Shown here: positions 1,447-64,000 of the stretch, in pieces
How the letters are laid out: each line of letters opens with the position of its first letter
Position numbering within the stretch: the stretch's first letter is position 1
Origin: Bacilli bacterium
GTDB lineage: Bacteria > Bacillota_I > Bacilli_A > RFN20 > CAG-826
DNA: 64,000 bases
NCBI GenBank assembly: GCA_045631885.1
Contig: JAZQVN010000013.1
Coordinates: forward strand, 21,242-85,241
Direction: 5' to 3'
The notes under the pieces: model-generated
Told to the model about the DNA's origin: nothing
What the model saw: only the letters and a program-made list of their open reading frames with translations
Databases searched by the model: none
Made by a program: the position numbers and the translations under genes

Positions 1447-1467
1447 ATTCATTTCCTCCTTCTGCGA

Positions 1468-2683: not shown

Positions 2684-2684
2684 A

Positions 2685-3320: not shown

Positions 3321-3341
3321 AACTTTGTTCTCCTTTCTGTT

Positions 3342-24426: not shown

Positions 24427-24481
24427 AATAATTACTTTTTCTACTTTTCGTTAAATTTGCTATGTCTATAAGACTGTTAAA

Positions 24482-24519
24482 GGATTAGCGGCGCCACATA
24501 GCGAGGCGCTCGCTAATCC
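24482..24519 (-). promoter_or_regulatory. GC-rich intercistronic stem-loop between oppA and oppB (partial terminator or mRNA stabiliser)
   Basis: GGATTAGCGGCGCC-acatagcga-GGCGCtCGCTAATCC is a stem of about 14 bp in otherwise AT-rich DNA, 38 nt after the oppA stop. Confidence 0.5.
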
Positions 24520-24556
24520 TATTTTCAAATACTTTGAATGTATCTACTAAAATCGA

Positions 24557-27934: not shown

Positions 27935-28217
27935 ATTTTTCTCCTTTCTTTGTTGTGTCTAGTGACACGGTTTTCAAATAATGAAATGCATTATTTATTA
28001 AATTCCGAATCAATACGATTTCGAGAATTTGCTTTCTATTATATATGTATGGACATGAGTGTCAAGTAAAAAATCGATTTTTCCCAATATGTTAATTCGG
28101 TATTTTTTGGTCAAAAATATGCAGTTAAAAAAATCTCTAAAAAAAATAACCTTTAGGTTATAAGATTTCATTGAATAATATTGATAAAAGAGAAAAATAA
28201 GACAATAATTTTAATCT

Positions 28218-49626: not shown

Positions 49627-49635
49627 TATAGAAAA

Positions 49636-49688
49636 ATATCGCATTTTTGATAATTTTAGTCGAGATTTGCGATATTTTTTTATTTTTT
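49636..49688. terminator. Putative terminator
   Basis: ATATCGCA...TGCGATAT followed by a T12 run. Confidence 0.45.
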
Positions 49689-49700: not shown

Positions 49701-50276
49701 TTACTGATTAGAATTAATGATATATTTACTAGCACCGTTGGCAAAACTCCACACCGGTGATGATGATAAACTATTACTTTCACAGACGCTTGGATTAGAG
49801 TCGTTGTCGTCTTTGTGCCATTGTTCAATACAATAATAATTTACATTGTTGGCACTATCATACGCGATATTGTATGTCTGATTCCAAATCTTATCGTTGA
49901 TATTCTCTTTTGTTAAACCTTCTGGATTTACTCTAGCGAATAAGAGTTTATTGTAGTTCACGGCATCATATCTAAATACATATAATTTGAAATTAACATC
50001 ATTAATGGTTGGATTTATTTGCTTATTTGGCGCAATCCAAACACCCGCACCATTATCTTTCCAAACATGCATGTAAAACTCTGCGCCAGTTGTATCCCAA
50101 ATGTTGGCATTAAGATAAATGCTAACCGGCAATTGTCCCTGATATCCTGCGTGTTGATCCAATCGATCACCAGCAGCAAAACCGGCATACGAAATATTCA
50201 CTAAGCTGGCGATACTTATTGTTATTTGAGATATTAATAAAGCAATCAGTGATTTCCTTTTAACTTTTGGTTCCAT
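49701..50276 (-). CDS. Small secreted protein, last gene of the SipW/TasA-like operon
   Basis: It has a signal peptide, is Asn/Trp-rich, and matches no recognised family. Confidence 0.5.
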   Translation of the reverse strand: MEPKVKRKSLIALLISQITISIASLVNISYAGFAAGDRLDQHAGYQGQLPVSIYLNANIWDTTGAEFYMHVWKDNGAGVWIAPNKQINPTINDVNFKLYVFRYDAVNYNKLLFARVNPEGLTKENINDKIWNQTYNIAYDSANNVNYYCIEQWHKDDNDSNPSVCESNSLSSSPVWSFANGASKYIINSNQ

Positions 50277-50277
50277 A

Positions 50278-53200
50278 TTAATTCACCGCCTGTAACAAGA
50301 AACTGATGTTATTGCTTAAATATCCAGCACTAACAAAATTGGTATATGATCCATTATACGGAGACGCTGTTGGCAAATAGTCAATTAAAATATATGCATA
50401 GTAAACATTGTTGTATGTTGAAATTGTTTCTAAAGCGCTGTGGTTAGTTATTATTTCATTATTACTCAACGCCAAATAAGTTGCGCTTGGAGAAGCCACG
50501 TCGTTTTGAACTTGATCGCGAACAATGTTGTAACAACTTATGCCTAATTCAGTATCGCTAACGTATAAAGAAGCACCCATAAATTCAGATAAGTTTCCAA
50601 AGGTTGCTTTTAACTGCACGCTCGCTGGATAGTTGCTTCTAAATGTAAATGGAACTTCAATAATTAAGGAAGTTTTTTGTGCCCAAATATTATTGATAGT
50701 ATCAGCTCTAGAAGTGTTGAGAGGATTCAATTTGAAATCAATACTTGTGTCGTATTCTTGAATGTCAATGGTTCCGCTTGTAACGGTAATTGAGAAATAT
50801 CCAGTGGTCTTAAATCTAATAACCGCACTCTCGCTGCCCGCGCCGAATTCAGCATAACTATTTGATCTCGCGGTCAAGGTTGTATAAAGTGTATCAACTG
50901 CGTCTAAATAAGAACGGATGAATATTTTACTGCCTTCTGCGGCATAGTAACCATCATATGCGGCATAAACTTTTGATCCTGAATTCATTTTCTTTCCATC
51001 TAAGAAATTGTTTACTCCCCTGCTGGAATTATACGGCATAATATAGTAACCATTTCCTAATTGTGGAACCATTGCAACAGATATTTCATCAGAAGTCGTT
51101 AAGTAGAAATTAAATCTTGCATCACAAGTCACTTTTAAAGTACCACCGTCATTTTCTAAATAAGTTGTTGGAATATCACCTGCATATTGTCCTGCGCTAT
51201 ATGTTTCATCGATGTCTCCGTCATTGTCTGTATCTACCTTAATAGCAACAGATTGTCCAGCTGTTAATTCTACGCCGTGTTCATAAACAAATTTATTGTA
51301 TGTATCGATGTCTCCATAATGCATTTCAATTCTAGTACCAGCGTTGTTGTTGATATAAATATATGCGGTTCCTACACTGGTTGTCGCCTTGGGGCTATCC
51401 CAATCCCAATCAACTTTTCCATCGGTATTTGTGCTCTTTAAAAGCAGCAATCCACCATCGTTGATGGTTGTGATATCAGTTGTTTGTGTTTGTGAATATC
51501 CGTAAGTACCATTATCGACAATTAAACCGGTTGCGGAATACGGAATAGACACTTTATATAAATTATTGCTGACTTTACTAGCGGTTATTTCACCATGAGA
51601 ACCGCTTCCACTTGAAAATCCATCTCCCCATCCGTGAATGTAAATATTTGAATTCCAAGAACGAGCTTGGGTATCGATATGGAATGTTTTTTGTCCAACA
51701 GAAATATATTTCACATACAAAGTTCTAGTGGCTGGAGCAGAAGCAGAATAAGGTGTTGTACAAGCTTCATTTGTATAATAAGTACCATCACATGTGAAAT
51801 GCGTCCATGTACCAGCATCAATCCATTCATAAGATGAACTTGGCGATGCTCCACCCGGTGTATAAGTTGCATCAGTGGCATAGGCCGTATCCCAGTTGTT
51901 TATAACATCATCTGATTTTGATGAAGCAGAACCATCATAATTGAAATATTTTTTGACCAATTTGACAGCATATTCCGTTGGTTTATATCTAGCATAAATC
52001 GTTCTTGCGGTGCTATATGTTTGCGGCCAAGAATTAATAAGACTTCCACCGGTTTCAGCAGTATACCATCCCATAAATGTATAATTTGTTACTGTTCCCG
52101 GATCGGTTGGAGTGAACGAAAAACTGTTAGTCGGATAAGATTGTTCGGTTCTTAAAGTTGAAGATGTATTCTTGGTGGTTCCACCTTTATTCATTAAAAC
52201 TCTAACTTCAGTGATATCAACCCCGGTTTCCGTATATTTTGCATATAATGTTAAATCTGCAGATACTGTTGTTGAAGATCCTGGGGAAGTACCATATGGG
52301 GTGGTACATTCTGGATTTGTGAACCAACCAGTAACTGAATAACCAGATTCAGATGGTAAAGCTTTAATTGTAAACGATTCATTGTAATAAGGATTTTGTG
52401 TTAAAGAAGGCAATGATGTCGGACTACTAACTGTATCCGTTCCATCGCCATTGAAATAAACTTTCTTGTAAGAAACAGTATATTGTTTCGGACCATAAAC
52501 AGCATAAATGGTTCTATCTGACGATGAAATGAAGTTTGCAGAAATAGATGTTAATGAGTCACTAAAAGTATTTGAACCAGTAAGAGTGGTATAATAGGCG
52601 GTAAAATTGTAATTTGCTGTACTTGGTGACAGCGCATTTCTCCATGCATTTAAAGCTGCGGTGGTAGCGGTAGTTCTCGTACTTGCTTTATAGTTCTGAT
52701 TGTTACCAAAACTTTGTTTAACGCCGCTAGAATTAGCATACGCAATTTTAATATTTATATTGTATTCTTTTTCCGCAACCGTTACATAAAGCGTCGTTGC
52801 GGCTATAATGTGTGTTCCGTTTGTGTAATTTGAACCAGTAAAACTGGTTGTTTTCCATGTTAAACCTGTATATGTATTGCCTTCAACAGTAATTGAACTT
52901 GGCGCAGTATACTCTGAATTGTATGATACTTTAACATCATCATAATTAGTTCCGGAAGTATAGTTTGTAGTTGGGCTTGTTCCTGTATAGGTTTTATATG
53001 AAAATCTATACATCAATGTGACGGTAACCGCCACATAGACATATATTTTTCCAGAAGAGTTCACGTACACATCTAAAACACAAGTTTTTAGAACTTTAAC
53101 ATTTTGTCCTTGTCCATCACCCGTTGCGGAATCGGAGTCATTAGTTCCTCCATAGCCATAATATCCATATTCATCGCTTTGTGTGTGACCAGTATCTATT

Positions 53201-54489
53201 TCACCATATGCGTTATAATACACGATTTTAAATTCTATTGGGGTGTTGTTGTTCGTGAGCGTGAAAGTAATGCCAACCTTTTTGGCTAAATCTCCCCCAC
53301 TAGGTGTGCCATCGACCTTTAAAGCGCCTGAAACAGACCAATCTAAAGTAGTTTCGTTTGCCGTTCCTCCAGATCCAATGATGTAATATCCTGGATCAGC
53401 GTGGAGTTTAACTGTCGGCGCAGCAGCACTAGAAGATGAAGGAAAAACCCATTTACCTTTAATATCATTAACCGTTAAATCTGCCGTTTTGAATGTCCAG
53501 TCATAATTTCCGTCATTTCCGTTGCTATCGCCAACAATGATAAGATTTGGATAGGTTGTTCTGACTGTTATCTCGAAGTCGTTATTAAAATTGCCGCTGT
53601 TATCCCAGCCATCCCAGCCATTATAACTCACCCATTCAGAATAAGTTCCGTTTCCAAACCAATATAACCAAAGTCTATTTAAACCTTTGCCGTTCCAATT
53701 GCTAGCGTTGACGTATATTTTTGATTCATCACCATTAAGAGCAGTTCTTTTTGAATTGTTTAAATGGATGCTGGATGAATTATTTGTATCACGAACTCTT
53801 GATCTATGATCAACTGTGCTTGTTGGCGTTTCAAAAGTCAAACTGCTCTCTGACAAATCAAACCACACACGATAAGTACCAGCATTAGCTACAATAACAT
53901 CACCTGTATATATACTTGCAGCGCTTTCTTCTCTTGTAGCTCCACTACTATTGGCAATAACACTATTAATAGGAACTTGCTCATTAACAGTATGAACACC
54001 TCCAGTATTATCGAAGGTGTATTTCATTACTCTGACTTTTTGGTCACTAGTAAAACTAACATCTGCATAATATGACTTATCAGAGGTGTTATATTCAATT
54101 AATTTAAAGCTGTTGTCATCATCATATTTAAAACCATTATCATGGAATTTAACGAGATAATATCCAATTCCATCTTCAGGAACGTTGAAGTCTCTATCAA
54201 CAGCATCTAAATCGTTATTTGTGCCAACAATATTTTCCGCAGCAAATTTACTTACTGTAGAGGAATTGTAATCAACTTGTCCATCTGAACCCAAAGTTTG
54301 TTTAATTTTGTATCCATACACATTATTCTGATTAATTTCAATCCCTGGATTATCAGCGGTAATGGATGTTTTTAACGGTTGAGAATCAATTTGGAACCAC
54401 GCAAAAGTTGAAACGCTCGCACACAAAACACCCAACAGTGATGTTGCCAATGTTAGATATAACGTTGTCTTCTTTTTTAGTGCTCTCAT
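50278..54489 (-). CDS. Giant (1403 aa) secreted protein with a TasA/camelysin-like N-terminal module with a SipW-cognate signal, Thr/Ser/Tyr/Asn-rich repeats and Listeria-Bacteroides (Flg_new) repeats
   Basis: The N-terminus is ..SVSTFAWFQIDSQ.. (compare TasA GGTWAAFND and CalY GGGTFAFFSD). Flg_new-type repeats ..SGYSVTGWFTNPECTTPYG...LTLYAKY are present. Confidence 0.6.
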   Translation of the reverse strand: MRALKKKTTLYLTLATSLLGVLCASVSTFAWFQIDSQPLKTSITADNPGIEINQNNVYGYKIKQTLGSDGQVDYNSSTVSKFAAENIVGTNNDLDAVDRDFNVPEDGIGYYLVKFHDNGFKYDDDNSFKLIEYNTSDKSYYADVSFTSDQKVRVMKYTFDNTGGVHTVNEQVPINSVIANSSGATREESAASIYTGDVIVANAGTYRVWFDLSESSLTFETPTSTVDHRSRVRDTNNSSSIHLNNSKRTALNGDESKIYVNASNWNGKGLNRLWLYWFGNGTYSEWVSYNGWDGWDNSGNFNNDFEITVRTTYPNLIIVGDSNGNDGNYDWTFKTADLTVNDIKGKWVFPSSSSAAAPTVKLHADPGYYIIGSGGTANETTLDWSVSGALKVDGTPSGGDLAKKVGITFTLTNNNTPIEFKIVYYNAYGEIDTGHTQSDEYGYYGYGGTNDSDSATGDGQGQNVKVLKTCVLDVYVNSSGKIYVYVAVTVTLMYRFSYKTYTGTSPTTNYTSGTNYDDVKVSYNSEYTAPSSITVEGNTYTGLTWKTTSFTGSNYTNGTHIIAATTLYVTVAEKEYNINIKIAYANSSGVKQSFGNNQNYKASTRTTATTAALNAWRNALSPSTANYNFTAYYTTLTGSNTFSDSLTSISANFISSSDRTIYAVYGPKQYTVSYKKVYFNGDGTDTVSSPTSLPSLTQNPYYNESFTIKALPSESGYSVTGWFTNPECTTPYGTSPGSSTTVSADLTLYAKYTETGVDITEVRVLMNKGGTTKNTSSTLRTEQSYPTNSFSFTPTDPGTVTNYTFMGWYTAETGGSLINSWPQTYSTARTIYARYKPTEYAVKLVKKYFNYDGSASSKSDDVINNWDTAYATDATYTPGGASPSSSYEWIDAGTWTHFTCDGTYYTNEACTTPYSASAPATRTLYVKYISVGQKTFHIDTQARSWNSNIYIHGWGDGFSSGSGSHGEITASKVSNNLYKVSIPYSATGLIVDNGTYGYSQTQTTDITTINDGGLLLLKSTNTDGKVDWDWDSPKATTSVGTAYIYINNNAGTRIEMHYGDIDTYNKFVYEHGVELTAGQSVAIKVDTDNDGDIDETYSAGQYAGDIPTTYLENDGGTLKVTCDARFNFYLTTSDEISVAMVPQLGNGYYIMPYNSSRGVNNFLDGKKMNSGSKVYAAYDGYYAAEGSKIFIRSYLDAVDTLYTTLTARSNSYAEFGAGSESAVIRFKTTGYFSITVTSGTIDIQEYDTSIDFKLNPLNTSRADTINNIWAQKTSLIIEVPFTFRSNYPASVQLKATFGNLSEFMGASLYVSDTELGISCYNIVRDQVQNDVASPSATYLALSNNEIITNHSALETISTYNNVYYAYILIDYLPTASPYNGSYTNFVSAGYLSNNISFLLQAVN

Positions 54490-54494
54490 ATTAA

Positions 54495-55379
54495 TTAAAA
54501 TTCCAAAGTTAATTCATTTAATTGAAATTGCAACCCAGCATAACAATTTGAGTTATATAATTTGTCGTTGTTGTCTCCGCTTGAATAATGATGAAAATAT
54601 CGTCCAGCCGCAGTATCTGCTTGTGGTGAATAATAATCCTCTGTTCCTCCAGAATTCGTTTCTTTAAACCAAGTGGAAGAGGCATTTGTGAAATAAACCG
54701 CATAAAACAACGTGGAAGAGGCATTTGGTGCAGCTCCAGTAAAAATTGTTTTTTGAGTGGAAAGAGTGATGATGTTCCCATCTGGCGTTCCTGGCAAGAA
54801 TGAAGATTTTAGAGTTCCAACAGTGAAGTTAAATTGATCTTGGGCAGAAAGAGATGCAGGATTGTTCACCATTGCGTTGTACGCACCGTTTTCGCTTGAT
54901 GTTGCCACTGCACTTGTATAAATATCCATGGCCCATCCAATGTTGATATCTCTATTGGAATAATCAACCGCTCTTCTGACTTGACCAGAAACTTGATCGC
55001 TATGAGTATTTGATGTAATTCTTTTAATTTTCAAATCTATGTTGCTGTCACATCCGGTCATTTTTACAGCGAAAACCATAACCTTACCAGGATACATTGC
55101 TGATAAGTTTGTTTTATCAGCTAACAATTCAGAGGTTGTGATAGCGTCAAAATCAGAACTAAATGTGCCTGTGTATGTGTGACTGGCTTTATTGCCTTTA
55201 TAGGCATAAAACATATAGTCATCTGGTTTTGTAACCGTAATTGTCGTAGATGTAGGTGCTGCAGTTATGGTGACATTTGCGTTAGCCTGGAACCAAGCGT
55301 ATGTCGAAACACCCGCTGTTGTAATAGCGAGTAAACCGATCATGACACTGGTGATTAATCCGGCTCTACCTTTTCCCAT
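54495..55379 (-). CDS. TasA/camelysin (Peptidase_M73)-like secreted protein with a SipW-cognate signal peptide
   Basis: The N-terminus is ..LAITTAGVSTYAWFQANANVTIT... It is 294 aa, similar in size to TasA/CalY. Confidence 0.55.
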   Translation of the reverse strand: MGKGRAGLITSVMIGLLAITTAGVSTYAWFQANANVTITAAPTSTTITVTKPDDYMFYAYKGNKASHTYTGTFSSDFDAITTSELLADKTNLSAMYPGKVMVFAVKMTGCDSNIDLKIKRITSNTHSDQVSGQVRRAVDYSNRDINIGWAMDIYTSAVATSSENGAYNAMVNNPASLSAQDQFNFTVGTLKSSFLPGTPDGNIITLSTQKTIFTGAAPNASSTLFYAVYFTNASSTWFKETNSGGTEDYYSPQADTAAGRYFHHYSSGDNNDKLYNSNCYAGLQFQLNELTLEF

Positions 55380-55391
55380 ACGGCCCCTTTC

Positions 55392-57854
55392 CTAGAATAC
55401 AAATCTTGCTCCTGTAATTAGGTCTTGATATTTTTCTTCAATTAAGATTGGCTTATCATCATGGATGATAGAGTTAATCTTATTTTGATAACTCTTATCA
55501 CTGGCCAATCTTCTTCCATCAATTCTGATATAGACGAATCTAGAGGTATCAAAGTTATATGTACCACTATCATTCGCGTCTAAAGCGATATTAAAGCCTA
55601 AATCTAAGGCGTAATTGACCGCTTCTAAGTGATTGATGATGTCTCTTTCTTTCGCTTCAAATATCACTCGATTGAGAGGGATATGCTTGCTTTCAAAGAA
55701 ACCAATCAATGTATCGAATAATTGTTTGTCTAATCCTTCTTTACCAATTGATGTAACATATATCGTTTCATTTTCATAATTGAAGGATCTGACGAATTTA
55801 TCCATGAAGGTGATATATTTCTTATCAATCTTCACATACAAACTGATTTGATCATCTGGGATGTGATTATGGTTTTCATCTAAGAAACGATAACCGACGA
55901 ACGCCATTTTGTATTTATTCTCTAAGTCTTTAATACGGAAATATGAAACTGGGATTTCATTATTCTTGAAGGCTTCTTCAACGATATCCATATAATGGAG
56001 ATGGTCATCAATCGGGGTTGGTGCTTCATCAACACGGTATAACATGCCTTTCTTCGTCACTCTCATGAATAAGGTTCTACTTAATGAATCTAATGAGAAT
56101 AATGTATTAACTTCTAATGGGTAACTTAATAAGATAACCTTTGGTAAGAAGTGGAAGGCTGTATCGTTTAATTCAAATGTTTCTAAGAAGGCTCTTGAAA
56201 CTGCTTTGGCGATTCTAATTGCTTCCGCCATTGAGGCGTATTTTAAGATATAGACGAATTCATCGACATCTTTACGATATAAGCTATCAGTTAAGCCATA
56301 GACTTCTAAGCCTTCAACAATCTTATTAACGATTCCTTCGTTATCTAATTTGTATTTGCTCGCTAATTGAGTCAATGAGTCAATCTTGAAGATGACTAAA
56401 TAACCCTTCGCATTCGCGTTAGATAATAAGCCTAATAATCTTTCGTTTAATGCTTTTCTATCATTAATAAATGGTTTCTTTTCATTTAATAAGTAGATTG
56501 TGTTCTTGTTATTATCCGCTTCCACGACTCTCTTATATAAGTTAGAAGACAACATATATGTTTTGGTGTTTTCTTGTTTTAATGGACAATCTTTACATGG
56601 AGATTCTCTATCATATAAAGTTTCATAACAATATGAACCCACTAGTTTGTTGGAGTATCTTTCATTTAACTTTCTAGAAGCGTGAGTGACGATATAATCT
56701 TCATCAACTTCATAAGATAACGAATCATGTAATTCTTCTAATCTATTAAATCTAGATTCCGCTTCTTCGACTTTCATCTTATCGATTTCAATTAAGACTA
56801 AGTTATTTAACATCGCGATCACTTTATTGAGTTTATAAAGTAAGCGAGGTGTGACTGGCACTTCTTCGTGTTCATTGGCGAATACGACATGAGCTTGTTT
56901 GCCCATATATTTAATTCCGGATAGTTTTAACCATGTCTTAAATTCTCTATCTTCGATTTCAGAAATTAATAATGCACCTTTATAGTTAACAATACGTAAA
57001 TATTCTTCATCGACGAGGACCGCCATATGGGTGAATGGGAGATATGGGAAGATATCGATTAAGTAATCTTCTATTAAGTTATCTTTAGATAAATCAATGT
57101 CTTTATATTTGTTGATGACATTGATAAAGACTTCTTTTTCACTATTTCTATCGTAGATCAAAAGTCTTTCTTCATCTTGATTTTGTTCTTGATTAATTAA
57201 TTCAAGAATTTCATCTAATGAATATTCGTCATAATAGAATAATTTAATAGAGCATTCTTTTCTTTCTTCCACGAATTTACGGAGATAATCTTCTAATTCG
57301 CTCTTATCAAAAGTATCGAGCACTAAATCAAAGCTCTTTTCATTTTGTCCAATGAAGCAATTTGGATATTTATCAACGATTCGTTCTAATGTTCTTTCTT
57401 TGACACCATTGATACGGAGGATCGCGCATTTCTCTAATCCGGATTTAATAATATATTTTCTTAATAACACGAAGAATTCATTTCCATCGTATAAAGTGGA
57501 ATATTCTAATGTGGTGTCATTAATGACAATATCATTAACCACACTAGCGATTTCTTTTAATCCTTCATCACCAGAATTAGTGTTGGCGATTAATAATTGG
57601 TTATGTTGATATTTCTTTAAAGATTTAACGATATTCTCTTTATCAATTTCTAAAGCTTTCTCTTTATCTTTTCTAGAAACATTCATCGCGATATAGAAAC
57701 CGCACATACCGAGTAGGAAAATCACGCTTAAAGCGATGAATAAGATTAATAAATCTTTCATCACAATAGCCATCACTAAAGAAGCAATGGATAAGGCTAA
57801 AAAGATAACCATCCACACGAAGTAAACATTATTTTGTTTATTTTTCTTCTTCAT
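55392..57854 (-). CDS. Membrane-anchored protein with a degenerate GGDEF domain followed by a degenerate EAL domain (c-di-GMP receptor/regulator-like)
   Basis: It has two N-terminal TMs. The GGDEF-like region ..YLVIFKIDSLTQLASKYKLDNEGIVN...YRKDVDEFVYIL..SMAEAIRIAKAV has KDVDEF in place of GGDEF. The EAL-like C-terminus has ..NIALDANDSGTYNFDTSRFVYIRIDGRR.. in place of IALDDFGTGYSSL..LKID. Confidence 0.55.
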   Translation of the reverse strand: MKKKNKQNNVYFVWMVIFLALSIASLVMAIVMKDLLILFIALSVIFLLGMCGFYIAMNVSRKDKEKALEIDKENIVKSLKKYQHNQLLIANTNSGDEGLKEIASVVNDIVINDTTLEYSTLYDGNEFFVLLRKYIIKSGLEKCAILRINGVKERTLERIVDKYPNCFIGQNEKSFDLVLDTFDKSELEDYLRKFVEERKECSIKLFYYDEYSLDEILELINQEQNQDEERLLIYDRNSEKEVFINVINKYKDIDLSKDNLIEDYLIDIFPYLPFTHMAVLVDEEYLRIVNYKGALLISEIEDREFKTWLKLSGIKYMGKQAHVVFANEHEEVPVTPRLLYKLNKVIAMLNNLVLIEIDKMKVEEAESRFNRLEELHDSLSYEVDEDYIVTHASRKLNERYSNKLVGSYCYETLYDRESPCKDCPLKQENTKTYMLSSNLYKRVVEADNNKNTIYLLNEKKPFINDRKALNERLLGLLSNANAKGYLVIFKIDSLTQLASKYKLDNEGIVNKIVEGLEVYGLTDSLYRKDVDEFVYILKYASMAEAIRIAKAVSRAFLETFELNDTAFHFLPKVILLSYPLEVNTLFSLDSLSRTLFMRVTKKGMLYRVDEAPTPIDDHLHYMDIVEEAFKNNEIPVSYFRIKDLENKYKMAFVGYRFLDENHNHIPDDQISLYVKIDKKYITFMDKFVRSFNYENETIYVTSIGKEGLDKQLFDTLIGFFESKHIPLNRVIFEAKERDIINHLEAVNYALDLGFNIALDANDSGTYNFDTSRFVYIRIDGRRLASDKSYQNKINSIIHDDKPILIEEKYQDLITGARFVF

Positions 57855-58080
57855 TTGTTTTTCCTTTCGTATTTATAAAGAGATGAAACTTATTGATAAG
57901 AAATATCGTAATAATTGCTAATAAGGTGAACACTGCGAGGAATAGATAAGATAGAATAGCGAGTAAATTATCTGAGCGGTTGAGGAATAAGATGAATGAT
58001 GTGATTGATGTTCCGAGTAATATTCCTAATAAGAGGAATAAGGGGAACAATATCATCTTGCTTTTGTTCTTATTTTCCAT
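57838..58080 (-). CDS. Small two-TM membrane protein
   Basis: It is an 80-aa hydrophobic ORF overlapping both neighbours. It may be translationally coupled. Confidence 0.4.
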   Translation of the reverse strand: MENKNKSKMILFPLFLLLGILLGTSITSFILFLNRSDNLLAILSYLFLAVFTLLAIITIFLINKFHLFINTKGKTNEEEK

Positions 58081-58912
58081 CTTTTTCCTTTTCGATTTGT
58101 TTACGGATTCTCGCTTTTATCTTTTCTTTTTCTTCTTGATACTCGATTCTTAATTCTTCTTTCATTCTGAATAGCTCAACCGCTTCTTCATCATTTAAGT
58201 CAATACCAGAATTCTTTAACGCTTCATCAATCCTCGCATTCAAAGCTTTTTCTTCTTTGTAATATTTGATGAATGCATCAGCGATGTAATATATCGCAAG
58301 TATCACAATTGGGGAGACGATGGCCACCGGGAAGAACCATGCTTTCTTTCCCGCGGAGGCTGCGCTATCGGGGCTAGCGATAGTTAAGAAGGTACCAAAT
58401 CCGATTGAGTGGTAGATAACTTTTCCAATTAAGAGATCTTGGTTCCACACTTTATCTGGTTTTAAATTACCTCTAGTGTGTAAGTCTGGATTATCTCCTA
58501 ATGTTTGGAAATAATATTTACCTTCTTCTTGGTTATACTCACGAGCGATTAAGCGGTGAGTATCTGGAACATAAGTTGATCCTACTTGAAGAGCGAATGT
58601 GACGATATCGCCGTCTTTTTCATAATCAACTATGTTGCCTTCTTCGTCATAAATCGGTGTGGATAGTTTTAATGACTCATAATTAGTCACTTTTTCAATG
58701 ATGATGCCTGTCCCCGCTTTTAAGGAATCGGGATTATCTGGATCATTCATACTTTCTGTCGCGACATATAAGAATGATTTTCCAAATACGACTGGCACTC
58801 CATAATTGCCACCTTTTGAAACATTCATGGAGATTTGTACATAGAGAAGTAAGAAGATAATGCCCACTAAGAAGATATCAATTATATAAGATATAATCTT
58901 TTTCGCTTTCAT
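58070..58912 (-). CDS. sipW: Signal peptidase I, archaeal/eukaryotic type (S26B; SipW-like) with a C-terminal TM and a charged coiled-coil tail
   Basis: It has an N-terminal TM. The Ser box is ..ATESMNDP.. (compare SGSMEP), the His box is ..VPDTHRLIA.., and ..QTLGDNPD.. matches SipW TKGDNN. A second TM is followed by a KE-rich tail. Confidence 0.8.
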   Translation of the reverse strand: MKAKKIISYIIDIFLVGIIFLLLYVQISMNVSKGGNYGVPVVFGKSFLYVATESMNDPDNPDSLKAGTGIIIEKVTNYESLKLSTPIYDEEGNIVDYEKDGDIVTFALQVGSTYVPDTHRLIAREYNQEEGKYYFQTLGDNPDLHTRGNLKPDKVWNQDLLIGKVIYHSIGFGTFLTIASPDSAASAGKKAWFFPVAIVSPIVILAIYYIADAFIKYYKEEKALNARIDEALKNSGIDLNDEEAVELFRMKEELRIEYQEEKEKIKARIRKQIEKEKDGK

Positions 58913-58914
58913 AA

Positions 58915-60297
58915 TCAGTTCTTCTTAGTATTCTTTGGTTTCTTTTCTTTTTTCTCTTTGAGTTTTTCTAATTGGCTTTCTAAATCATCATTAGCCATTC
59001 TTAGTCTTTTAATTTCATTAATTAAAGTATCGATATCTTTCTTGACGCTTTCGATCATTCTCTTACGATGTTCCGCATCGCGATATGCGACTTCATCTTT
59101 ATCCTTAACAATCGCTTTGTGCACATTAACACGCGCGTCTTTTTGATTCTTTAACTTCTGATGTAATTTATCGTCTTTTAGACGAACTTGTTCGCTAGAT
59201 AATGGTAAGTGAATCTTATCTGTCTTTAAGGCTTCTGGATAAGCATCGAATAAGAATCTTGAATCCATATATGTTTCATCTTCTAATGTGAAGATCACTT
59301 GAGGAGTATATTTCTTTTCGATCTTTTCAGGGATTAATTCATCATTTACTTTATTCGTGTGAAGCGCGGATACACTCATCGCGATATAAGAATTGATTTC
59401 ATCTAAATATTCTTTGGAGAATTTTTGATTCACTTCAGTGATATCGTAACTAATACCTAATTCTTCATAATCTTCTAAGAAGCACCAGAATTCATAGGCT
59501 CGATGATAATCAGGGTTTTTCACTAACATATTCGTCATGTGAATTGGAGAAGTGACTTCTCTAGCCCCTTTCATCTGAGTCATAAACGGAGAAGCGAAAT
59601 ATCCAGAACATCTATTCTTTAATTCATTGAGTTTATTTAATAAGTAGTCGTTATGGTCTTTTTCACCATCATCATTAGATGGGATAGACACTTTGATTCT
59701 AGAATCAACTTCATAAGTGACATTACCAATAACAGTTTTGTTATGAATTAATAACAAATCGCTATCACGAGTTTCACCATGTTCAAGAACATAGTTATAT
59801 CTCTTTTGAATGAAAGATAAACATCTCTTAATGAGAGTCATAACAAATCTATTTTCATAAATCGCTGTATCTGTTTCCGCGTAGATTGTTAAGACTTTTT
59901 CTGGAATAACTTCGCCATTATCATCGATATCTTGAACAAATTGGCTATGAGTGGCGAAATGTCTAATTGATAAAGAGGAAACTCTTTTGGCTAATCCAAC
60001 TTGAACCAGTTCAGCTTGCTCTTTAATAAATGTTCTCGGGTTAGCGATAATCTTTTCAATCGCTTGTAAACCACCTTCTAATTGTTCAATAATCGAAGCA
60101 TCAAATTTCTTAGATTCGGTTCTTTGAGTTTGTCTGATGTAATTTTCTCCACCAGAAAGGACACCTTTTAATTTATCGAATTCCGCGTTCTTATTAACAT
60201 TTATGTTAACTTCGCGATAAGCCTTGCTGGCTTTTTCCATGTTTAAAGAGGTGGGGTTTAATCTAGATGAAACTGATGTCTTTTTACTTTTGGCCAT
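58915..60297 (-). CDS. Hypothetical partner protein of the McrB-like GTPase (possible McrC-like fold with no evident PD-(D/E)xK motif) and a C-terminal coiled coil
   Basis: It is 460 aa, starts 3 nt after the McrB-like gene and ends 3 nt before sipW. The segment ..AIYENRFVMTLIKRCLSFIQ.. faintly resembles the McrC N-terminal motif. Confidence 0.35.
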   Translation of the reverse strand: MAKSKKTSVSSRLNPTSLNMEKASKAYREVNINVNKNAEFDKLKGVLSGGENYIRQTQRTESKKFDASIIEQLEGGLQAIEKIIANPRTFIKEQAELVQVGLAKRVSSLSIRHFATHSQFVQDIDDNGEVIPEKVLTIYAETDTAIYENRFVMTLIKRCLSFIQKRYNYVLEHGETRDSDLLLIHNKTVIGNVTYEVDSRIKVSIPSNDDGEKDHNDYLLNKLNELKNRCSGYFASPFMTQMKGAREVTSPIHMTNMLVKNPDYHRAYEFWCFLEDYEELGISYDITEVNQKFSKEYLDEINSYIAMSVSALHTNKVNDELIPEKIEKKYTPQVIFTLEDETYMDSRFLFDAYPEALKTDKIHLPLSSEQVRLKDDKLHQKLKNQKDARVNVHKAIVKDKDEVAYRDAEHRKRMIESVKKDIDTLINEIKRLRMANDDLESQLEKLKEKKEKKPKNTKKN

Positions 60298-60299
60298 AA

Positions 60300-61844
60300 T
60301 TATCTAGCATTTTTCATTAATGTTTTAATCTTGTCTCTACTGAGTAAGAATTCGTTTAAGCCATAGAGTCTAGTTAATTCTTCATCTAAAGCGACGAGTT
60401 CTTCTTTTAATAGACCGACGCTTAACACTTCAAATTTCTTTAATACTTTTGTCTTAAAGATGAAGTCATAAGCCTCTAATTCAGTTCCTCCACAGGCGAT
60501 ATAAGCAGGAACAAAGGAGTAGAGTTGTTTCATGATACGGTTACCAAAGGCAAGCTTGAAATGTTCAATGACAAAGTTATCGAGTTCAGCGAATTTCGCG
60601 ATGCTTTCTTCACTGACCGGATGTTCTTCTCTCGCCTTCGCGTATAATCCTAATAAATATTCCGCGGGCACAGGTAAGGCTTCTGTGTATGGAGCGTCGA
60701 ATGGTTGTGCTTTATTATCGAAGAATAAGGACACCGCTCTATCGTAGACCTTATCGGTGATAGTGAATGTGCTATCATCGTTATTCGCAGTACCAACAAA
60801 CCAAATATTTTGTGGGATTAATAATTTGCCACCTTCTAAGTGTTTTGGATCATCTTCTTTACCTGCAGCGATAACATCAACAATCCATTCTTTTGGATCA
60901 GGCATTTCCATGATGGATAAGAATTCAGCAAAATAGTATTCAATACGAGCTAAGTTCATTTCATCGAGAACGACGACGGAAATATCATTACGATATGTCG
61001 CTTCATAACAGGCTCTTAAGAATTCTGTTTCAGTGAATTTCTTGGTGAAGTCATTATAGTAACCTAATAATTCACTTCTATCTCTCCAAGATGGTTGAAC
61101 TGGACAAATAGATGCACTATGACGGAGGAATCGACCCATACAATATGGTAAAGATGTTTTACCTGTACCAGAGATACCTTCTAAGATAATCAAATGTCCT
61201 GTTCCCATTGCGGCGAAGAATTGTCTGACCACTTCTGGGGCATAGTATAACTTCATTTGAGAACAAGCGAAGTTTCTAAATCTTTCACAAATTTCCTTTA
61301 AGGAAATAGATGTAGAATCCGCTGGGAGTTCCGCAACGTAGTTACCTTCTTTATATTTATCATCGACTGTATAGAGCTTAGCAAATCTGCCTCCCACGAC
61401 GGAATCATCAGCAGCACCTTTTCCACGACCTCCGCCACCACCGGCTTCAATCACTGGAGAATAAGTACCATCAGCGTTACGTGATAAGGCTAAGATGCGA
61501 TCTTTTTCTCTTGTCACATCGTATAATTCGAGGTTTAATCTTTCGATTTCCTCTTTCATCTTCTCTTCATTTGACCCTTTAGCGCCTTTTTTGAAAATCT
61601 TTCTAATCGCCCAGATGAGTAATAACACGATTGAGGCGATGAAAAGCACACCAATAACAACGAAGATGACGAACATAATTGTTCCCACCACTCCAAATTG
61701 AGGTTGGTTTTCCGCGAAGACTAAAATGTAATCATCAGGGGAAAAGCGATAAGTTCCTTTGAAGATATTACCGATGTGAGTAAATAAGGTAGTAAAGACT
61801 CCGTTTACATAAAGTAGAAAACTTTGAAATCCATTCATAAACAA
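60300..61844 (-). CDS. Membrane-anchored McrB-family AAA+ (AAA_5) GTPase-domain protein
   Basis: It has N-terminal TM helices and a Gly-rich linker. Walker A is EGISGTGKT. ..VVLDEMNLARIEYYFAEFLSIME.. matches McrB FIIDEINRANLSKVFGE..LME, and ..NIWFVGTANNDDST...DRAVSLFF.. matches McrB IIGTMNTADRS...RRRF. Confidence 0.75.
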   Translation of the reverse strand: MFMNGFQSFLLYVNGVFTTLFTHIGNIFKGTYRFSPDDYILVFAENQPQFGVVGTIMFVIFVVIGVLFIASIVLLLIWAIRKIFKKGAKGSNEEKMKEEIERLNLELYDVTREKDRILALSRNADGTYSPVIEAGGGGGRGKGAADDSVVGGRFAKLYTVDDKYKEGNYVAELPADSTSISLKEICERFRNFACSQMKLYYAPEVVRQFFAAMGTGHLIILEGISGTGKTSLPYCMGRFLRHSASICPVQPSWRDRSELLGYYNDFTKKFTETEFLRACYEATYRNDISVVVLDEMNLARIEYYFAEFLSIMEMPDPKEWIVDVIAAGKEDDPKHLEGGKLLIPQNIWFVGTANNDDSTFTITDKVYDRAVSLFFDNKAQPFDAPYTEALPVPAEYLLGLYAKAREEHPVSEESIAKFAELDNFVIEHFKLAFGNRIMKQLYSFVPAYIACGGTELEAYDFIFKTKVLKKFEVLSVGLLKEELVALDEELTRLYGLNEFLLSRDKIKTLMKNAR

Positions 61845-61852
61845 AGCTCCTT

Positions 61853-62980
61853 TTAATCAATGATGCCAGTAAATGAGATATCAACATCAAAACTGGCGGA
61901 TGCTATTTCATCAGTCATATCAATATCCCAACCTTCGACATAGATACTAATAACGATTCTTTTCGTTTCTCCTTCTTTAATATGACAGATAGGAGTAAGT
62001 TTTCCTGCCAAATAGTTGACTTGATTGAATGCAAATGATTTTAGCGGATATGACTCTTCTTTTTTAATTTCGACTTGGTGGTTATTTGTGTCTAAGAAAG
62101 CACTACGATTATCGTTAACAAACGCCACTTGTTTAATGCCTTTCGCATGATTAGCAATAAAGGTGTTTTTGTTATCTTTTAATGGTTCAAGTTCGTTAAC
62201 TTCTCCATCCACGTAATTTGGCGTAGATTCATATTCACCATAAAGGATTTCTTTATTATCCTCATCGTAATCATAGTAGCCATCTTTATCTAAATCTAAG
62301 ATGCCACCGAAGTATGTTTGTTCACTGTTACCTAATGTATCAGCGGGCTTACAAACAACATATTGTTCATTCGTTAAGAATGAGTATCTGACAGCGTTTA
62401 CGACATTATCGAGTTTATCAGCGTGTAATTCACCATCACTCTTGGCTTCCGCTTCCACGTTTTTATCGTGATTAGGAGCTATGCCAGTGTTTTCCGATAA
62501 ATAGATATCCATTTCTCGTCCAGCGGTAAATACAAATGTATTTTGGACATAGAAATTGTCTTCGTCATCTTGAGTGGCCAAACTTGGTTTCTCATTAATC
62601 TTCGGTCTATAGTTTCTTCTAAATTGTGGTAATAATGTCTCATCAGTTTTCGTAGTTTCGTTATACCAATCATCTTGATACATACCACTGACTTGGCCTA
62701 AGTATTTGCCTTCGATACCTAACTGCTCTTTTGTGTAGCCATCTCCTTCTTCGTCCTCAACTGGATTTCCATCTTTATCTAATAGTTCGAGTTTTAACCA
62801 TGCGTTTTCTTCCAAATCGACACGCATATTCAAACTACCGATAATCGCTATATCGAGCATGTTATACCATGCCGCAGTAGCGACTGAGGAGGTGGCCACA
62901 CCAAAAGCAAAAAGTACTGCACATACAGCCATAAACTTAATCTTCTTATTTTTCAAAGGTGTAGATCTTTTAAAAGGCAT
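61853..62980 (-). CDS. TasA/camelysin-like secreted protein with a SipW-cognate signal peptide
   Basis: The N-terminus ..ATSSVATAAWYNMLDIAIIGSLNMRVDL.. aligns with TasA ..GGTWAAFNDIKSKDATFASGTLDL... Length is 375 aa. Confidence 0.6.
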   Translation of the reverse strand: MPFKRSTPLKNKKIKFMAVCAVLFAFGVATSSVATAAWYNMLDIAIIGSLNMRVDLEENAWLKLELLDKDGNPVEDEEGDGYTKEQLGIEGKYLGQVSGMYQDDWYNETTKTDETLLPQFRRNYRPKINEKPSLATQDDEDNFYVQNTFVFTAGREMDIYLSENTGIAPNHDKNVEAEAKSDGELHADKLDNVVNAVRYSFLTNEQYVVCKPADTLGNSEQTYFGGILDLDKDGYYDYDEDNKEILYGEYESTPNYVDGEVNELEPLKDNKNTFIANHAKGIKQVAFVNDNRSAFLDTNNHQVEIKKEESYPLKSFAFNQVNYLAGKLTPICHIKEGETKRIVISIYVEGWDIDMTDEIASASFDVDISFTGIID

Positions 62981-62982
62981 TA

Positions 62983-63882
62983 TTATATACCGAAGTGTAA
63001 TGACATAAGCATATAACCTGTGAATGGGAATGGATCTGGGTCTCTCTTTTCAAAGTAACAAACAAATGTAAATCTGAGTGAATCTTTGATTTCGACTGCA
63101 TTATCAACAATTCTCTTCTCGTTTGAGAAGTTGAATTTTTCACAATATCCATCAACACCATACTTTGTGGCAGGTTTGATACTATTATTTTCTTCATCAA
63201 TGACATAATCCGAGACGATTTCTCTGTGATTACTGTCGCCGTTATCGTACGCTTGTGTGAAAGGATTCGCCTGATTCCTTTCCTTGCCATAATAGTAATT
63301 ATGGATAACACCATCTTGGTCCTCGGTTTGAACGAGAACTCTAGCGCTTTCTAATAGTTGGGTATTTTCATATCCTTCTAAGTCAACTGCGTAGTTAACT
63401 CTTGTGGTCATTTCATTTGTCTCATTGGTGAGATAAACAGTGAACACTAAAGCGAGGTCACTAGGATCTTCAACCGCTTTTTTAGCTCTTCCTATATCCA
63501 CTAAATGGTTTTCATTCATGTTCGTGGAGCCGGTTAACTTCTTGTTAACGTTTAGATAATTAAGATATTCTTCAACATTTGACGCGGTGGTTTGTTCCAC
63601 TGTTCTAAGTGGTTCGCCTTGCGCATATGTCACAGGACTATCTTGCCCTTCTTCTTCACCTTCTCCGGATTCTCCTGAACCGAAACCAGTAAGGTGCATT
63701 TTGAAGTTAGAATTATCATCGCTTAATGGGTTATCAATACGAATTGTAAACGCTGAATTACCTTGAGGGAGTAAAGAAAGGACGAGAAAAAGGACTGCTA
63801 CACCAGATGATACAGCTAGACCAATTAAGCCCAGTCTCTTTAATAATCTATATCTCGCAATCTTTTTCGCTTCGCCTGTCAT
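62983..63882 (-). CDS. TapA-like (TasA anchoring/assembly) candidate, first gene of the operon
   Basis: It has a signal-anchor followed by ..GNSAFTIRIDN.. (compare TapA ..SAAFHDIE..). It is an acidic secreted protein with an AGAGGAGAGG RBS. Confidence 0.4.
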   Translation of the reverse strand: MTGEAKKIARYRLLKRLGLIGLAVSSGVAVLFLVLSLLPQGNSAFTIRIDNPLSDDNSNFKMHLTGFGSGESGEGEEEGQDSPVTYAQGEPLRTVEQTTASNVEEYLNYLNVNKKLTGSTNMNENHLVDIGRAKKAVEDPSDLALVFTVYLTNETNEMTTRVNYAVDLEGYENTQLLESARVLVQTEDQDGVIHNYYYGKERNQANPFTQAYDNGDSNHREIVSDYVIDEENNSIKPATKYGVDGYCEKFNFSNEKRIVDNAVEIKDSLRFTFVCYFEKRDPDPFPFTGYMLMSLHFGI

Positions 63883-64000
63883 AATAAAACCTCTCCTCTA
63901 GGTATGAAGAAATCGCTATTACCAATCTAATTACTTCTTTTGTTGCCGCAAAAGGATAATCAAATAAGCATTAGCTAACTGCCCTATTGGAGAAGACGGT

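Follow-up and report, generated by a model that had tools for sequence, protein, structure and literature searches.

A CoCoPALM-type operon combining leader-bearing secreted proteins, a SipW-type signal peptidase, an McrB-like GTPase pair and a degenerate GGDEF-EAL protein

Why would an operon that encodes a SipW-type signal peptidase and its likely secreted substrates also encode a membrane-anchored McrB-family GTPase with a partner, and a membrane protein whose GGDEF and EAL domains are degenerate? Such an operon, g1-g10, occupies positions 49701-63882 of the minus strand in the window, as we call the whole stretch of 64,000 nucleotides that was analysed. A reading of the sequence alone had taken it for an expanded TasA-type fibre operon that is not a described system. 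The type, however, had already been named in 2024: g1-g10 is a CoCoPALM-type system, as far as that type is defined in the main text of Bell et al. (PMC11090510).

All ten co-directional genes listed in the sequence-only reading were found as ORFs, with verified coordinates. They are closely packed, with intergenic gaps from g1 to g10 of 2, 8, 2, 2, -11, -17, 12, 5 and 1 nt. A ribosome-binding site had been placed near 63.9 kb, and direct reading of the sequence locates GGAGAGG at 63890..63896 (minus strand), 7 nt before the ATG of g1. The window leaves just 118 nt 5' of g1; a promoter scan gave no enrichment over shuffles, and the operon promoter probably lies at or past the window edge. At the other end, where a terminator had been claimed at about 49.65 kb, a terminator-like hairpin (49628..49683, minus strand) sits between g10 and a convergent plus-strand DUF2804 gene. 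The inverted repeat and T-run are present (a perfect 12-bp stem with a 24-nt loop), but the hairpin is weaker than claimed (dG -11.3 kcal/mol, z -2.28) and was missed by a consensus terminator scan. The genome had also been credited with a 'Mollicutes-like' signature, a label that is loose at best: TGA is a stop codon in the window, and the closest named relatives are Bacilli and Erysipelotrichaceae MAGs. The host is an uncultured member of the class Bacilli from gut or rumen.

Cytoplasmic and membrane components

The GTPase gene, g3 (60300..61844), encodes 514 aa when read from a TTG at 61844, although an ATG at 61838 (512 aa) is the more likely start. About 55 N-terminal residues precede a single TM segment (59-77), a short coiled coil and an McrB-family AAA+ GTPase domain with Walker A (GISGTGKTS), Walker B (VVVLDEMN) and a signature, GTANNDDS, of the Nx(x)D kind. 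A search of the PDB returned a McrB match at E 4e-4, and hhalign aligned g3 with E. coli McrB over 226 columns (probability 95.7%, E 9e-9), bearing out the membrane-anchored McrB-type GTPase that had been proposed. Related sequences form at least 8000 clusters. Neither homology to FtsB nor an NxD form of the motif could be established for g3. While its GTPase domain is homologous to McrB, g3 differs from McrBC and CoCoNuT systems in being membrane anchored and in having no DNA- or RNA-binding domain.

The proposed partner of this GTPase is g4 (58915..60297; 460 aa), an McrC-like protein with a DUF2357 domain (3.5e-8; 33.4 bits against a Pfam cut-off of 23.3), which is the N-terminal, GTPase-activating domain of McrC. 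A hairpin, Y-E-V-D-x-R-x-K, is invariant in the alignments, and the C-terminal coiled coil of about 100 aa lies in a region that matches bZIP-type coiled coils only. Unlike in McrBC and CoCoNuT systems, no PD-(D/E)xK nuclease is recognisable in g4: it has no match to a nuclease family and no invariant (D/E)xK.

Next in the operon, g5 (58070..58912; 280 aa) is a signal peptidase I of the SipW/archaeal (ER) type, with TM segments at both termini and a charged, conserved cytoplasmic tail (IDxNDExAVELFRMKEE...). Its top NCBIfam matches are TIGR02228 (6e-6) and the SipW model (1.7e-5), both under their cut-offs; the same top matches were obtained for eight of eight orthologues, one of them above the cut-off (59.6 against 51.85). 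Matches to SEC11 are weak. Together with the invariant Ser54-Met55, His119-Arg120 and Gly139-Asp140, these results agree with the assignment that had been made from the Ser, His and GDN boxes.

Two further membrane proteins follow. The small TM protein reported earlier, g6 (57838..58080), has 80 aa and two TM segments; it has orthologues in all close loci, was detected in 2 of 39 wider loci, and is specific to the window's subtype. The second, g7 (55392..57854; 820 aa), starts with two TM helices; an alpha/beta region and a long helix come next, then a PAS/GAF-like domain in which C409...C420-x-x-C423-P is invariant, and finally, in the cytoplasm, a GGDEF domain and an EAL domain. Its extracytoplasmic portion is almost absent. 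The GGDEF domain is degenerate (DVDEF), as is the EAL domain, whose motif has lost its Glu. Although HMM matches to GGDEF and EAL are weak, the identity claimed for this protein is confirmed by structure searches, which returned both folds and placed the EAL domains of FimX and LapD among those nearest in structure to that of g7, and by transitive homology, since its positional homologues in other loci have Pfam-significant EAL and GGDEF matches.

Secreted proteins and the TasA question

Five proteins, g1, g2, g8, g9 and g10, begin with a membrane segment followed by a conserved motif of the T-x-A|W-F type, with a small residue at -1, S, T or N at -3, and an aromatic residue after the predicted cleavage point. 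The leader, which had been noticed in four proteins, is real and specific, and g10 carries a related one too. When ORFs across the whole window are counted from stop to stop with a minimum of 60 codons, [ST]-x-A-W-[FY] has three occurrences, all of them within g1-g10. The leaders of g2, g8, g9 and extra flanking ORFs are homologous, with hhalign probabilities of 83-97%.

The first gene, g1 (62983..63882; 299 aa), is a core component with one N-terminal TM segment and a distinct, conserved motif after it, GN[SA]AFT[IV]RIDNP; it has no Pfam family and could be either a substrate or a membrane anchor. The second core protein, g2 (61853..62980; 375 aa; leader ...ATAA-W-Y-N), has a leader homologous to that of g8 (94%) and belongs to a family of 288 clusters at 50% identity, with no Pfam match among 81 members. 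In other loci it often occurs as 2-5 tandem paralogues, making it a candidate pilin-like subunit.

The remaining three genes form a triad. In g8 (54495..55379; 294 aa; leader ...GVSTYA|WFQA), a secreted jelly-roll protein from a family of 44, the 21 residues after the predicted cleavage site are very highly conserved in the alignment; N63, E240 and C279 are invariant and K51 nearly so. The AF2 model (pLDDT 81.5) has a confident jelly-roll core, while packing of the N-terminal extension, a candidate donor strand, is of low confidence (residues 21-47 below 50). The giant secreted repeat protein g9 (50278..54489; 1403 aa; leader SVSTFA|WFQ) contains Listeria-Bacteroides (Flg_new) repeats (1.4e-8) and other beta-rich modules and is likely to be an adhesin. 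Its leader is homologous to that of g8 (97%), in agreement with the HMM, and the length of its orthologues runs from 1287 aa to over 3300 aa, one of them with a CBM26. Finally, g10 (49701..50276; 191 aa; leader NISYA|GF) is a small secreted protein with orthologues and no Pfam family, whose leader is less similar to that of g8 (48%).

The secreted proteins had been described as TasA paralogues with a TasA-like stretch after the leader, and this assignment was not supported. Peptidase_M73/TasA and SipW-cognate signal-peptide HMMs matched none of the window proteins, 37 g8 relatives or 81 g2 relatives; hhalign against a TasA sequence validated against the PDB gave probabilities of 2-5%; and fold searches with g8 returned generic beta-sandwich matches only, so that the membership tests for the TasA/camelysin family yield a generic jelly-roll. 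The one resemblance to TasA that we accept is the leader, in which T-[YF]-A|W-F lines up with T-W-A|A-F of TasA.

Conservation and relation to CoCoPALM

Gene order is kept in about 10 divergent loci. All ten genes follow one another in the same order in L001, L008, L009 and L010, whose flanks differ from locus to locus, and in L007 this order holds up to the contig end, inside g8; L005 and L006 are partial loci. A further 80 metagenome loci encode g1, one or more copies of g2, the GTPase, the McrC-like protein, the peptidase and EAL proteins in an almost invariant order. In these loci g4 adjoins the GTPase gene (64/64), which has a g2-like gene (50/50) and g1 (29/35) on its 5' side, while g5 lies downstream in 40 of 45 and upstream in 2 more; a 2TM-EAL gene is found in 34/38, and EAL or g7 in 31/32. 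A gene of the PNP_UDP_1 nucleosidase family is present in 27 of 29 wider loci. The operon in the window represents a minority variant: genes for PNP and the EAL phosphodiesterase are missing from it, and it has g6, a short g7 and the triad of g8, g9 and g10. Identity is far higher in the cytoplasmic and membrane parts (63-84% for g3 orthologues, 49-75% for g4) than in the secreted ones, where g8 reaches about 35-59% and g1, g2, g9 and g10 are lowest. Across all related loci the McrB-like, McrC-like, peptidase and GGDEF-EAL genes hold fixed positions amid varying flanks, so that g1-g10 is one conserved, self-contained module rather than a fibre operon into which passenger genes were inserted. 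The gene set and its order recur in many genomes that are uncultured and Bacilli/Erysipelotrichaceae-like.

Bell et al. 2024 (PMC11090510) used the name CoCoPALM for FtsB-like-fused McrB GTPases that occur with coiled-coil McrC homologues and signal-peptidase-family proteins, in one paragraph of main text that defers analysis to a later paper; a literature search found no such follow-up. At the level of that paragraph, g1-g10 has the same components: an McrB-like GTPase with an N-terminal TM segment and coiled coil, an McrC homologue (DUF2357) with a coiled coil, an adjoining signal-peptidase-family gene, and membership of a large clade in Bacillota. The comparison covered the main text, which does not mention the near-universal EAL/GGDEF-EAL link, the leader-defined cargo class, the PNP_UDP_1 gene, or the window's variant with g6, short g7 and g8-g10 triad.

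Proposed function and its alternatives

We consider it probable that the operon serves to assemble or present protein fibres or adhesins at the cell surface, coupled to a GTPase and to c-di-GMP-type signalling. A system of this kind had been suggested before and is still the best explanation, without the kinship to TasA. As in tapA-sipW-tasA of B. subtilis and sipW-bsaA-bsaB-bsaC of C. perfringens (PMC9674648, PMC11580942), a dedicated ER-type signal peptidase lies beside its secreted substrates, whose leaders have an aromatic residue after a final T-x-A, and the beta-sandwich core of g8 is preceded by a conserved extension without confident packing, as donor-strand exchange predicts; to TasA itself, similarity was not detectable in sequence, in profile or in specific fold. 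SipW-dependent donor-strand fibres have precedents in TasA (PMC9674648) and BsaA (PMC11580942), and similar polymerisation is known from archaeal bundling pili (PMC9245690). According to this model, substrates would be exported by Sec and kept in the membrane by their leaders until g5 cuts after the T-x-A motif. In g8, cleavage would expose the conserved extension WFQAxAN...TTITV, which may act as the donor strand that polymerises jelly-roll subunits, as in those three systems. The giant g9 and g10 could then have adhesive or tip functions, and g1 and g2 could form a conserved base or shaft.

The TasA and BsaA systems have no GTPase, McrC-like protein or in-operon GGDEF-EAL protein, all of which are present here. 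One may speculate that a g3 ring with g4, linked through coiled coils with both the membrane and the cytoplasmic g5 tail, performs GTP-dependent work in assembly or extrusion or serves as a checkpoint for it. Known SipW/TasA-type fibres need no NTPase, and this role is therefore proposed by analogy alone. The membrane protein g7 is a putative c-di-GMP-type receptor that may gate the g3/g4 step. It resembles FimX and LapD, which relay c-di-GMP levels to the type IV pilus ATPase (through PilZ-PilB) and to the LapG protease that processes an adhesin, in combining degenerate GGDEF and EAL domains at the membrane; it differs from LapD in lacking HAMP and periplasmic domains, and the NTPase is of the McrB rather than the PilB type.

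Members of the McrB family otherwise act as nucleic-acid-directed motors in defence, and PNP_UDP_1 proteins are nucleotide-depleting effectors in some defence systems. One could imagine that the McrB/McrC pair is a sensor or motor directed at invading nucleic acid or infection cues, with PNP_UDP_1 and EAL proteins as nucleotide-degrading effectors in most loci and the secreted proteins as receptors, decoys or a barrier within an anti-phage response. The PNP_UDP_1 gene of most related loci, which the fibre or adhesin model leaves unexplained, speaks for such a role, as do the match of g3 to the PADLOC 'phage defence candidate' profile PDC-M26A (2e-41), the toxin-antitoxin pair, integrase and RhuM beside L009, and the placement of the clade with CoCoNuT-like Type IV restriction relatives in the main text of Bell et al. 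(PMC11090510). We nevertheless regard defence as unlikely. A TM segment and coiled coil occupy the position of a DNA-binding domain in g3, g4 has no nuclease signature, five of the ten genes encode proteins for secretion, with a dedicated peptidase, and the window's variant has neither PNP nor an active-looking EAL gene. Moreover, a pattern scan found no relative among 2.9 million viral contigs, and the flanks of related loci are mainly housekeeping genes and not defence islands.

We judge equally doubtful a switch of the LapD/LapG type that forms no polymer, in which monomeric adhesins would remain on uncleaved signal anchors until g7, sensing c-di-GMP, and g3/g4 allow g5 to free them by cleavage. 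A giant repeat adhesin and a membrane protease do share the operon, and the conserved tail of g5 could take the signal, but g7 offers almost nothing outside the membrane to touch the active domain of the protease, the tandem g2 arrays elsewhere resemble pilin sets, and the extreme conservation of g8 after its cleavage site fits a post-cleavage role as donor strand better. Most improbable is an ordinary tapA-sipW-tasA-type biofilm operon with diverged TasA paralogues and unrelated co-transcribed insertions. The SipW-type peptidase, the leader in register with that of TasA and a local 'NLSxxxPG' in g8 that aligns with NLSNLKPGD of TasA are in its favour, but no test found TasA/Peptidase_M73 membership, and the synteny counts largely refute it: no genes of the module are more conserved or more constant than the supposed insertions.

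Membrane and cytoplasmic components of the cluster

Ten co-directional genes, numbered here g1 to g10 in the order of their transcription, occupy the minus strand at 49701-63882, as the sequence-only reading of this DNA had described. They encode proteins of 299 (g1), 375 (g2), 514 (g3, 60300-61844), 460 (g4), 280 (g5), 80 (g6, a small protein with two TM segments), 820 (g7), 294 (g8, 54495-55379), 1403 (g9) and 191 aa (g10, 49701-50276), and are separated, in this order, by 2, 8, 2, 2, -11, -17, 12, 5 and 1 nt. A GGAGAGG ribosome-binding site precedes g1, and the start of g3 is probably the ATG at 61838. At the downstream end, the interval between g10 and a convergent DUF2804 gene holds a perfect 12-bp inverted repeat with a T-run (dG -11.3, z -2.3), which a consensus terminator scan misses. 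The standard genetic code applies, because the stop codon of g4 is TGA; the Mycoplasma code was dropped for the same reason.

The product of g3 is indeed a McrB-type GTPase, with a homologous domain that carries the Walker A, Walker B and Nx(x)D signature. A search against the PDB returned McrB (E 4e-4), and hhalign comparison with E. coli McrB gave a probability of 95.7% (E 9e-9). The motif GTA-N-N-D-D-S fits 'NxD followed by a second D', NNDD being compatible with both NxD and NxxD, and in the hhalign alignment its spacing to the flanking conserved residues is that of the NxxD of E. coli McrB. The N-terminus of g3 differs from that of McrB: it is a hydrophobic and coiled-coil region, with a TM segment at residues 59-77 and then a coiled-coil-like stretch, NEEKMKEEIERLNLELYDVTREKDRILALSR, ahead of the GTPase domain, and family HMM scans matched no DNA-binding family to it. 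The family is large, with at least 8000 matches, the best 120 of which are all at least 54% identical to g3 and about 500 aa long; among the matches listed, those with a named source are hypothetical proteins only, from Bacilli or Erysipelotrichaceae MAGs.

The partner gene, g4, carries DUF2357 (33.4 bits against a Pfam cut-off of 23.3), a domain found in its orthologues too. DUF2357 is the N-terminal GTPase-activating domain of McrC. Direct hhalign comparison of g4 with E. coli McrC found nothing. Residues ~355-455 form a charged heptad-like region whose PDB matches are bZIP-type coiled coils only, and a sequence-level search for a PD-(D/E)xK site found neither a nuclease family match nor, in a 7-sequence alignment, an invariant (D/E)xK in residues 236-345.

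Directly downstream of g4 lies g5, for which the assignment as a SipW/archaeal-type signal peptidase is upheld by HMM matches, catalytic boxes and TM anchors. Its sole meaningful NCBIfam matches are archaeal-type signal peptidase I (TIGR02228, 6e-6) and SipW (NF046067, 1.7e-5), both below the curated cut-offs; all eight orthologues have the same two top matches, and the one from the related locus L012 passes TIGR02228 (59.6 against 51.85 bits). As the equivalog cut-off for SipW (190 bits) is not reached, we describe g5 as SipW-like rather than as a SipW orthologue. The pairs S54-M55, H119-R120 and G139-D140 do not vary among the 7 sequences aligned, a SEC11 alignment spans the His and GDN boxes, and TM segments at residues 6-24 and 193-211 flank the catalytic domain. 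The second of these is followed by a conserved charged cytoplasmic tail, of a kind that, to our knowledge, B. subtilis SipW does not have. Profile searches of the g5, g4 and g7 families against the PDB gave nothing useful and were no better than single sequences.

The membrane protein g7 does have degenerate GGDEF and EAL domains, as had been claimed, the folds being present and the catalytic motifs lost. Its direct Pfam matches are weak and below the cut-offs, and much stronger evidence comes from its AlphaFold model (pLDDT 72.6), which contains both folds; the domains were settled by this structure together with an intermediate homologue. Over its full length g7 is homologous (probability 98.7%, E 2e-16) to proteins of 1012-1029 aa in related loci, which pass the Pfam cut-offs for EAL and GGDEF. 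It has DVDEF instead of GGDEF and, in the alignment, V-G-Y where the homologue has E-A-Y, so that the Glu of EAL is lost. Such degenerate domains are consistent with a receptor role. By hhalign, nothing was found between g7 and a canonical GGDEF-EAL protein or the two-TM EAL protein of related loci. An invariant C-Y-x8-P-C-x-x-C-P motif, common to the 1000-aa homologues, lies in a PAS/GAF-like region at residues 409-424 (56584-56631) and may be a metal or redox site in a region modelled with low confidence.

The sequence-only reading took the system to be undescribed. This is no longer tenable, as Bell et al. (2024, PMC11090510) had already named it CoCoPALM, and an association of McrBC with a signal peptidase and a pilus is already in print. 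In that paper, the McrB GTPase is described as fused to an FtsB-like TM and coiled-coil domain, coiled coils are reported on the McrB and McrC homologues alike, and the analysis is deferred to a later paper; our literature search found no such follow-up study. The cluster in the window has the TM and coiled-coil GTPase, the McrC coiled coil and the associated signal-peptidase gene in common with this description. Comparison of g3 with E. coli FtsB by hhalign detected no homology, and the resemblance of g3 to the published fusion is therefore one of architecture only. The published description, as far as its text is accessible, is minimal and does not mention c-di-GMP-type genes or a leader-defined class of cargo. 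The class to which the locus in the window belongs had been named without being characterised; the locus adds a new member to it and represents a minority variant.

The leader-bearing proteins and TasA

Five products of the cluster (g1, g2, g8, g9 and g10), which we term cargo, have one N-terminal hydrophobic segment each, followed by a conserved motif: GN[SA]A-F-T-[IV]-R-I-D-N-P in g1, AT[ATS][YA]A-W-Y in g2, GVST[YF]A-W-F-Q-A in g8, S[IV][AS]T[FAT][AST]-W-[FY]-Q in g9 and [SIT]-x-A-x-[FY] in g10. The predicted sites of all five obey the -3/-1 rule of signal-peptidase cleavage. Class III (type IV pilin) signal peptides were considered and dropped, since the conserved motif comes after the hydrophobic stretch and not before it. 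The leaders of g2, g8 and g9 and of extra ORFs flanking other loci are homologous (hhalign probabilities 83-97%), that of g10 is more weakly similar (48%) and that of g1 is distinct. Among the ORFs of the window, [ST]-x-A-W-[FY] was found just three times, each time in this cluster.

Further genes with such leaders (GT[AF]AW[FY]..., about 250-360 aa) flank related clusters, some of them on the opposite strand and some just upstream of g1. They were found at 183-1067 (-) in L008, 2-196 (-) in L010, 17681-18532 (+) and 18807-19571 (-) in L001, 5921-6796 (-) in L012 and 5438-6532 (-) in L014. Since g1 begins 118 nt from the end of the window, a gene of this kind, in divergent orientation, could be located immediately outside it.

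The secreted proteins had been described as TasA paralogues, and this part of the claim failed in HMM, hhalign and fold tests alike; the leader is all that links them to TasA. In Pfam and NCBIfam scans, the profiles for camelysin (Peptidase_M73) and for the SipW-cognate signal (TIGR04088) matched none of g1, g2, g8, g9 and g10. The same held for 37 relatives of g8, even at E up to 10, for 81 relatives of g2 and for the orthologues of g1 and g10, and this HMM check, one that the sequence-only reading had itself proposed, returned no TasA-family match in any of the secreted proteins scanned. With a B. subtilis TasA query validated against PDB 8AUR, hhalign gave probabilities of 4.7% for the g8 family (just a 25-column stretch, 'NLSxxxPG'), 2.3% for the g2 family (the leader only) and 4% or less for the other secreted families, and the mature domain showed no specific fold similarity to TasA (5OF1/8AUR). 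The motif T-[YF]-A|W-F can be placed in register with T-W-A|A-F of TasA in an alignment without statistical support; for TasA, the N-terminus seen in PDB 8AUR confirms where cleavage takes place.

Conservation in g8 is highest in the first 21 residues of the predicted mature protein (WFQAxAN...STTITVxKPD), and these residues are not confidently packed in the g8 model. This N-terminal extension has the appearance expected of a donor strand, and we regard it as a candidate for one. N63, E240 and C279 of g8 never vary, and K51 is kept in 35 of the 37 sequences, making these four residues candidates for an intermolecular isopeptide bond or a disulfide. K51, N63 and E240 recall the N-E-K isopeptide triad of C. 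perfringens BsaA (PMC11580942), a speculative link drawn from sequence.

The giant protein g9 carries Flg_new repeats, and its orthologue in L010 (10004-14083) has a precomputed match to CBM26. Mature g10 (YLNANIWD...FYMHVW) is reminiscent of CBM25/26 starch-binding modules. A kinship of g10 and of the g9 termini with CBM26 was not significant, hhalign of g10 against the CBM26 module found elsewhere in the window giving a probability of 3%.

Related loci and the possible role of the GTPase pair

The g8 family is small (44 clusters), but its members lie in closely similar gene neighbourhoods. L001, L008, L009 and L010 have the same ten-gene order with unrelated flanks, and a Bacilli MAG (L007) has it up to the contig end, which falls within g8; L005 and an Erysipelotrichaceae MAG (L006) show only part of the order. 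The cytoplasmic and membrane components are much better conserved than the secreted ones, a contrast to be expected of a surface structure. A scan of genome contigs with the g8-leader pattern gave two loci only, and the taxonomy of the relatives therefore rests on MAG names. In L009 the cluster has a ParE/YoeB-Phd toxin-antitoxin pair to one side of it and, to the other, a phage-type integrase with RhuM (385-896; 15353-17815), flanks that hint at mobility in at least one lineage. In L003 (3039-16132), two divergently oriented triads of the g8-g9-g10 type lie beside a canonical PAS-GGDEF-EAL protein. No GTPase/peptidase core was found within 10 kb of them, so a cargo triad need not be encoded next to the core.

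A wider survey covered 80 metagenome loci with relatives of g3 at 43-73% identity, from sources that, according to contig names, include human gut and activated sludge. Counted just in loci with enough flank, g4 is present in 64 of 64, one or more g2-like genes lie upstream in 50 of 50, and g5 lies downstream in 40 of 45 (upstream in 2 more); g1 was found in 29 of 35. Between the peptidase and the g7 homologue, most of the related systems have two further genes, one for a two-TM protein whose EAL domain is full-scoring (6e-68) and one of the PNP_UDP_1 nucleosidase family, as in L012 (14608-17000), L014 (14505-16804) and most of L019-L095. This EAL phosphodiesterase occurs in 34 of 38 loci and the PNP_UDP_1 gene in 27 of 29, and 31 of 32 have either EAL or g7, while g6 and g8 occur in 2 of 39 and 2 of 24. 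From these counts, the general core comprises, in this order, g1, one or several g2, the GTPase, the McrC-like protein, the peptidase, the EAL and PNP proteins and a GGDEF-EAL protein of ~1013 aa. The window holds a minority variant that lacks the active-looking EAL and PNP genes and has a shorter g7 together with g6, as well as the g8-g10 triad.

For an operon in which components, membrane topology, co-conservation, a leader class and a receptor-like g7 are all observed, a surface fibre or adhesin system is the best-supported interpretation. In such a system, substrates would be exported via Sec and their leaders cleaved by g5 after T-x-A; g8, and possibly g2, would then polymerise by donor strand, with g9 and g10 as adhesive parts, and g3, g4 and g7 would act in a GTP-dependent and c-di-GMP-gated manner, by analogy with FimX-PilB and LapD-LapG. 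This interpretation retains from the sequence-only reading a surface system with an NTPase and a c-di-GMP-type link, and leaves behind TasA paralogy and undescribed status. A plain TasA operon with passenger genes is highly improbable, being essentially excluded by the synteny counts. That the cluster inherited from McrBC a role in defence or conflict also seems unlikely to us. Over its GTPase core, g3 matches PDC-M26A, a 'phage defence candidate' profile of PADLOC (2e-41; PDC-M26 is itself not mentioned in the literature that we searched), and the PNP gene of most related loci would also suit such a function; against it, a pattern scan of 2.9 million viral contigs returned no relative of g3. 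An adhesin-release switch resembling LapD, in which nothing is polymerised, has an equally low probability in our estimation.

One may tentatively propose, as a possibility somewhat short of even, that a McrB/McrC-type GTPase pair was co-opted from nucleic-acid restriction as the motor or checkpoint of a new, c-di-GMP-gated class of machines for making Gram-positive pili or fibres, one that is widespread among uncultured Bacilli of the gut and rumen. According to this proposal, the SipW-like peptidase would uncover the donor strand of subunits marked by their leader, and the membrane-tethered AAA+ ring would drive or license the polymerisation and extrusion of these subunits.

If true, a restriction-enzyme motor has been recruited to cell-surface assembly, a shift of role that would be unexpected in the McrBC family. 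A large group of Bacilli from gut, rumen and digesters, most of them uncultured, would then have a pathway to fibres or adhesins different from those of sortase pili, type IV pili and plain TasA-type fibres, with a GTPase family of at least 8000 proteins. The near-universal pairing with EAL or GGDEF-EAL proteins offers a connection of c-di-GMP signalling to the surface structures of these organisms that is concrete and can be tested, and the leader motif is a simple way to enumerate cargo in any genome. This cargo includes giant repeat adhesins, at least one of them with a starch-binding module. The class is abundant, its mechanism is puzzling, and both the c-di-GMP connection and the cargo leader open it to experiment.

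The remainder of the window

Outside the cluster, the window looks like an ordinary Bacillota chromosome, with AddAB-like genes, subtilases, a MatE transporter and an aldehyde dehydrogenase. Other large secreted proteins are encoded at 13811-17944 (-), 30739-32595 (-) and 24557-27934 (-); they are two subtilases, one with PA and one with Big_3 and a CBM26 starch-binding module, and a Big_2-SBP protein, and the leader motif of the cluster is absent from all three. G+C content is 0.40-0.44 at 1-4000 and 24000-28000, compared with 0.31-0.38 elsewhere, and the second of these stretches coincides with the Big_2-SBP protein, a surface protein of 1125 aa with Big_2 and SBP_bac_5 domains. The sole Rfam match at gathering score in the window is a COG3943 RNA (RF02941, 89.8 bits) at 5087-5189 (+), upstream of a 535-aa ORF at 5409-7016.
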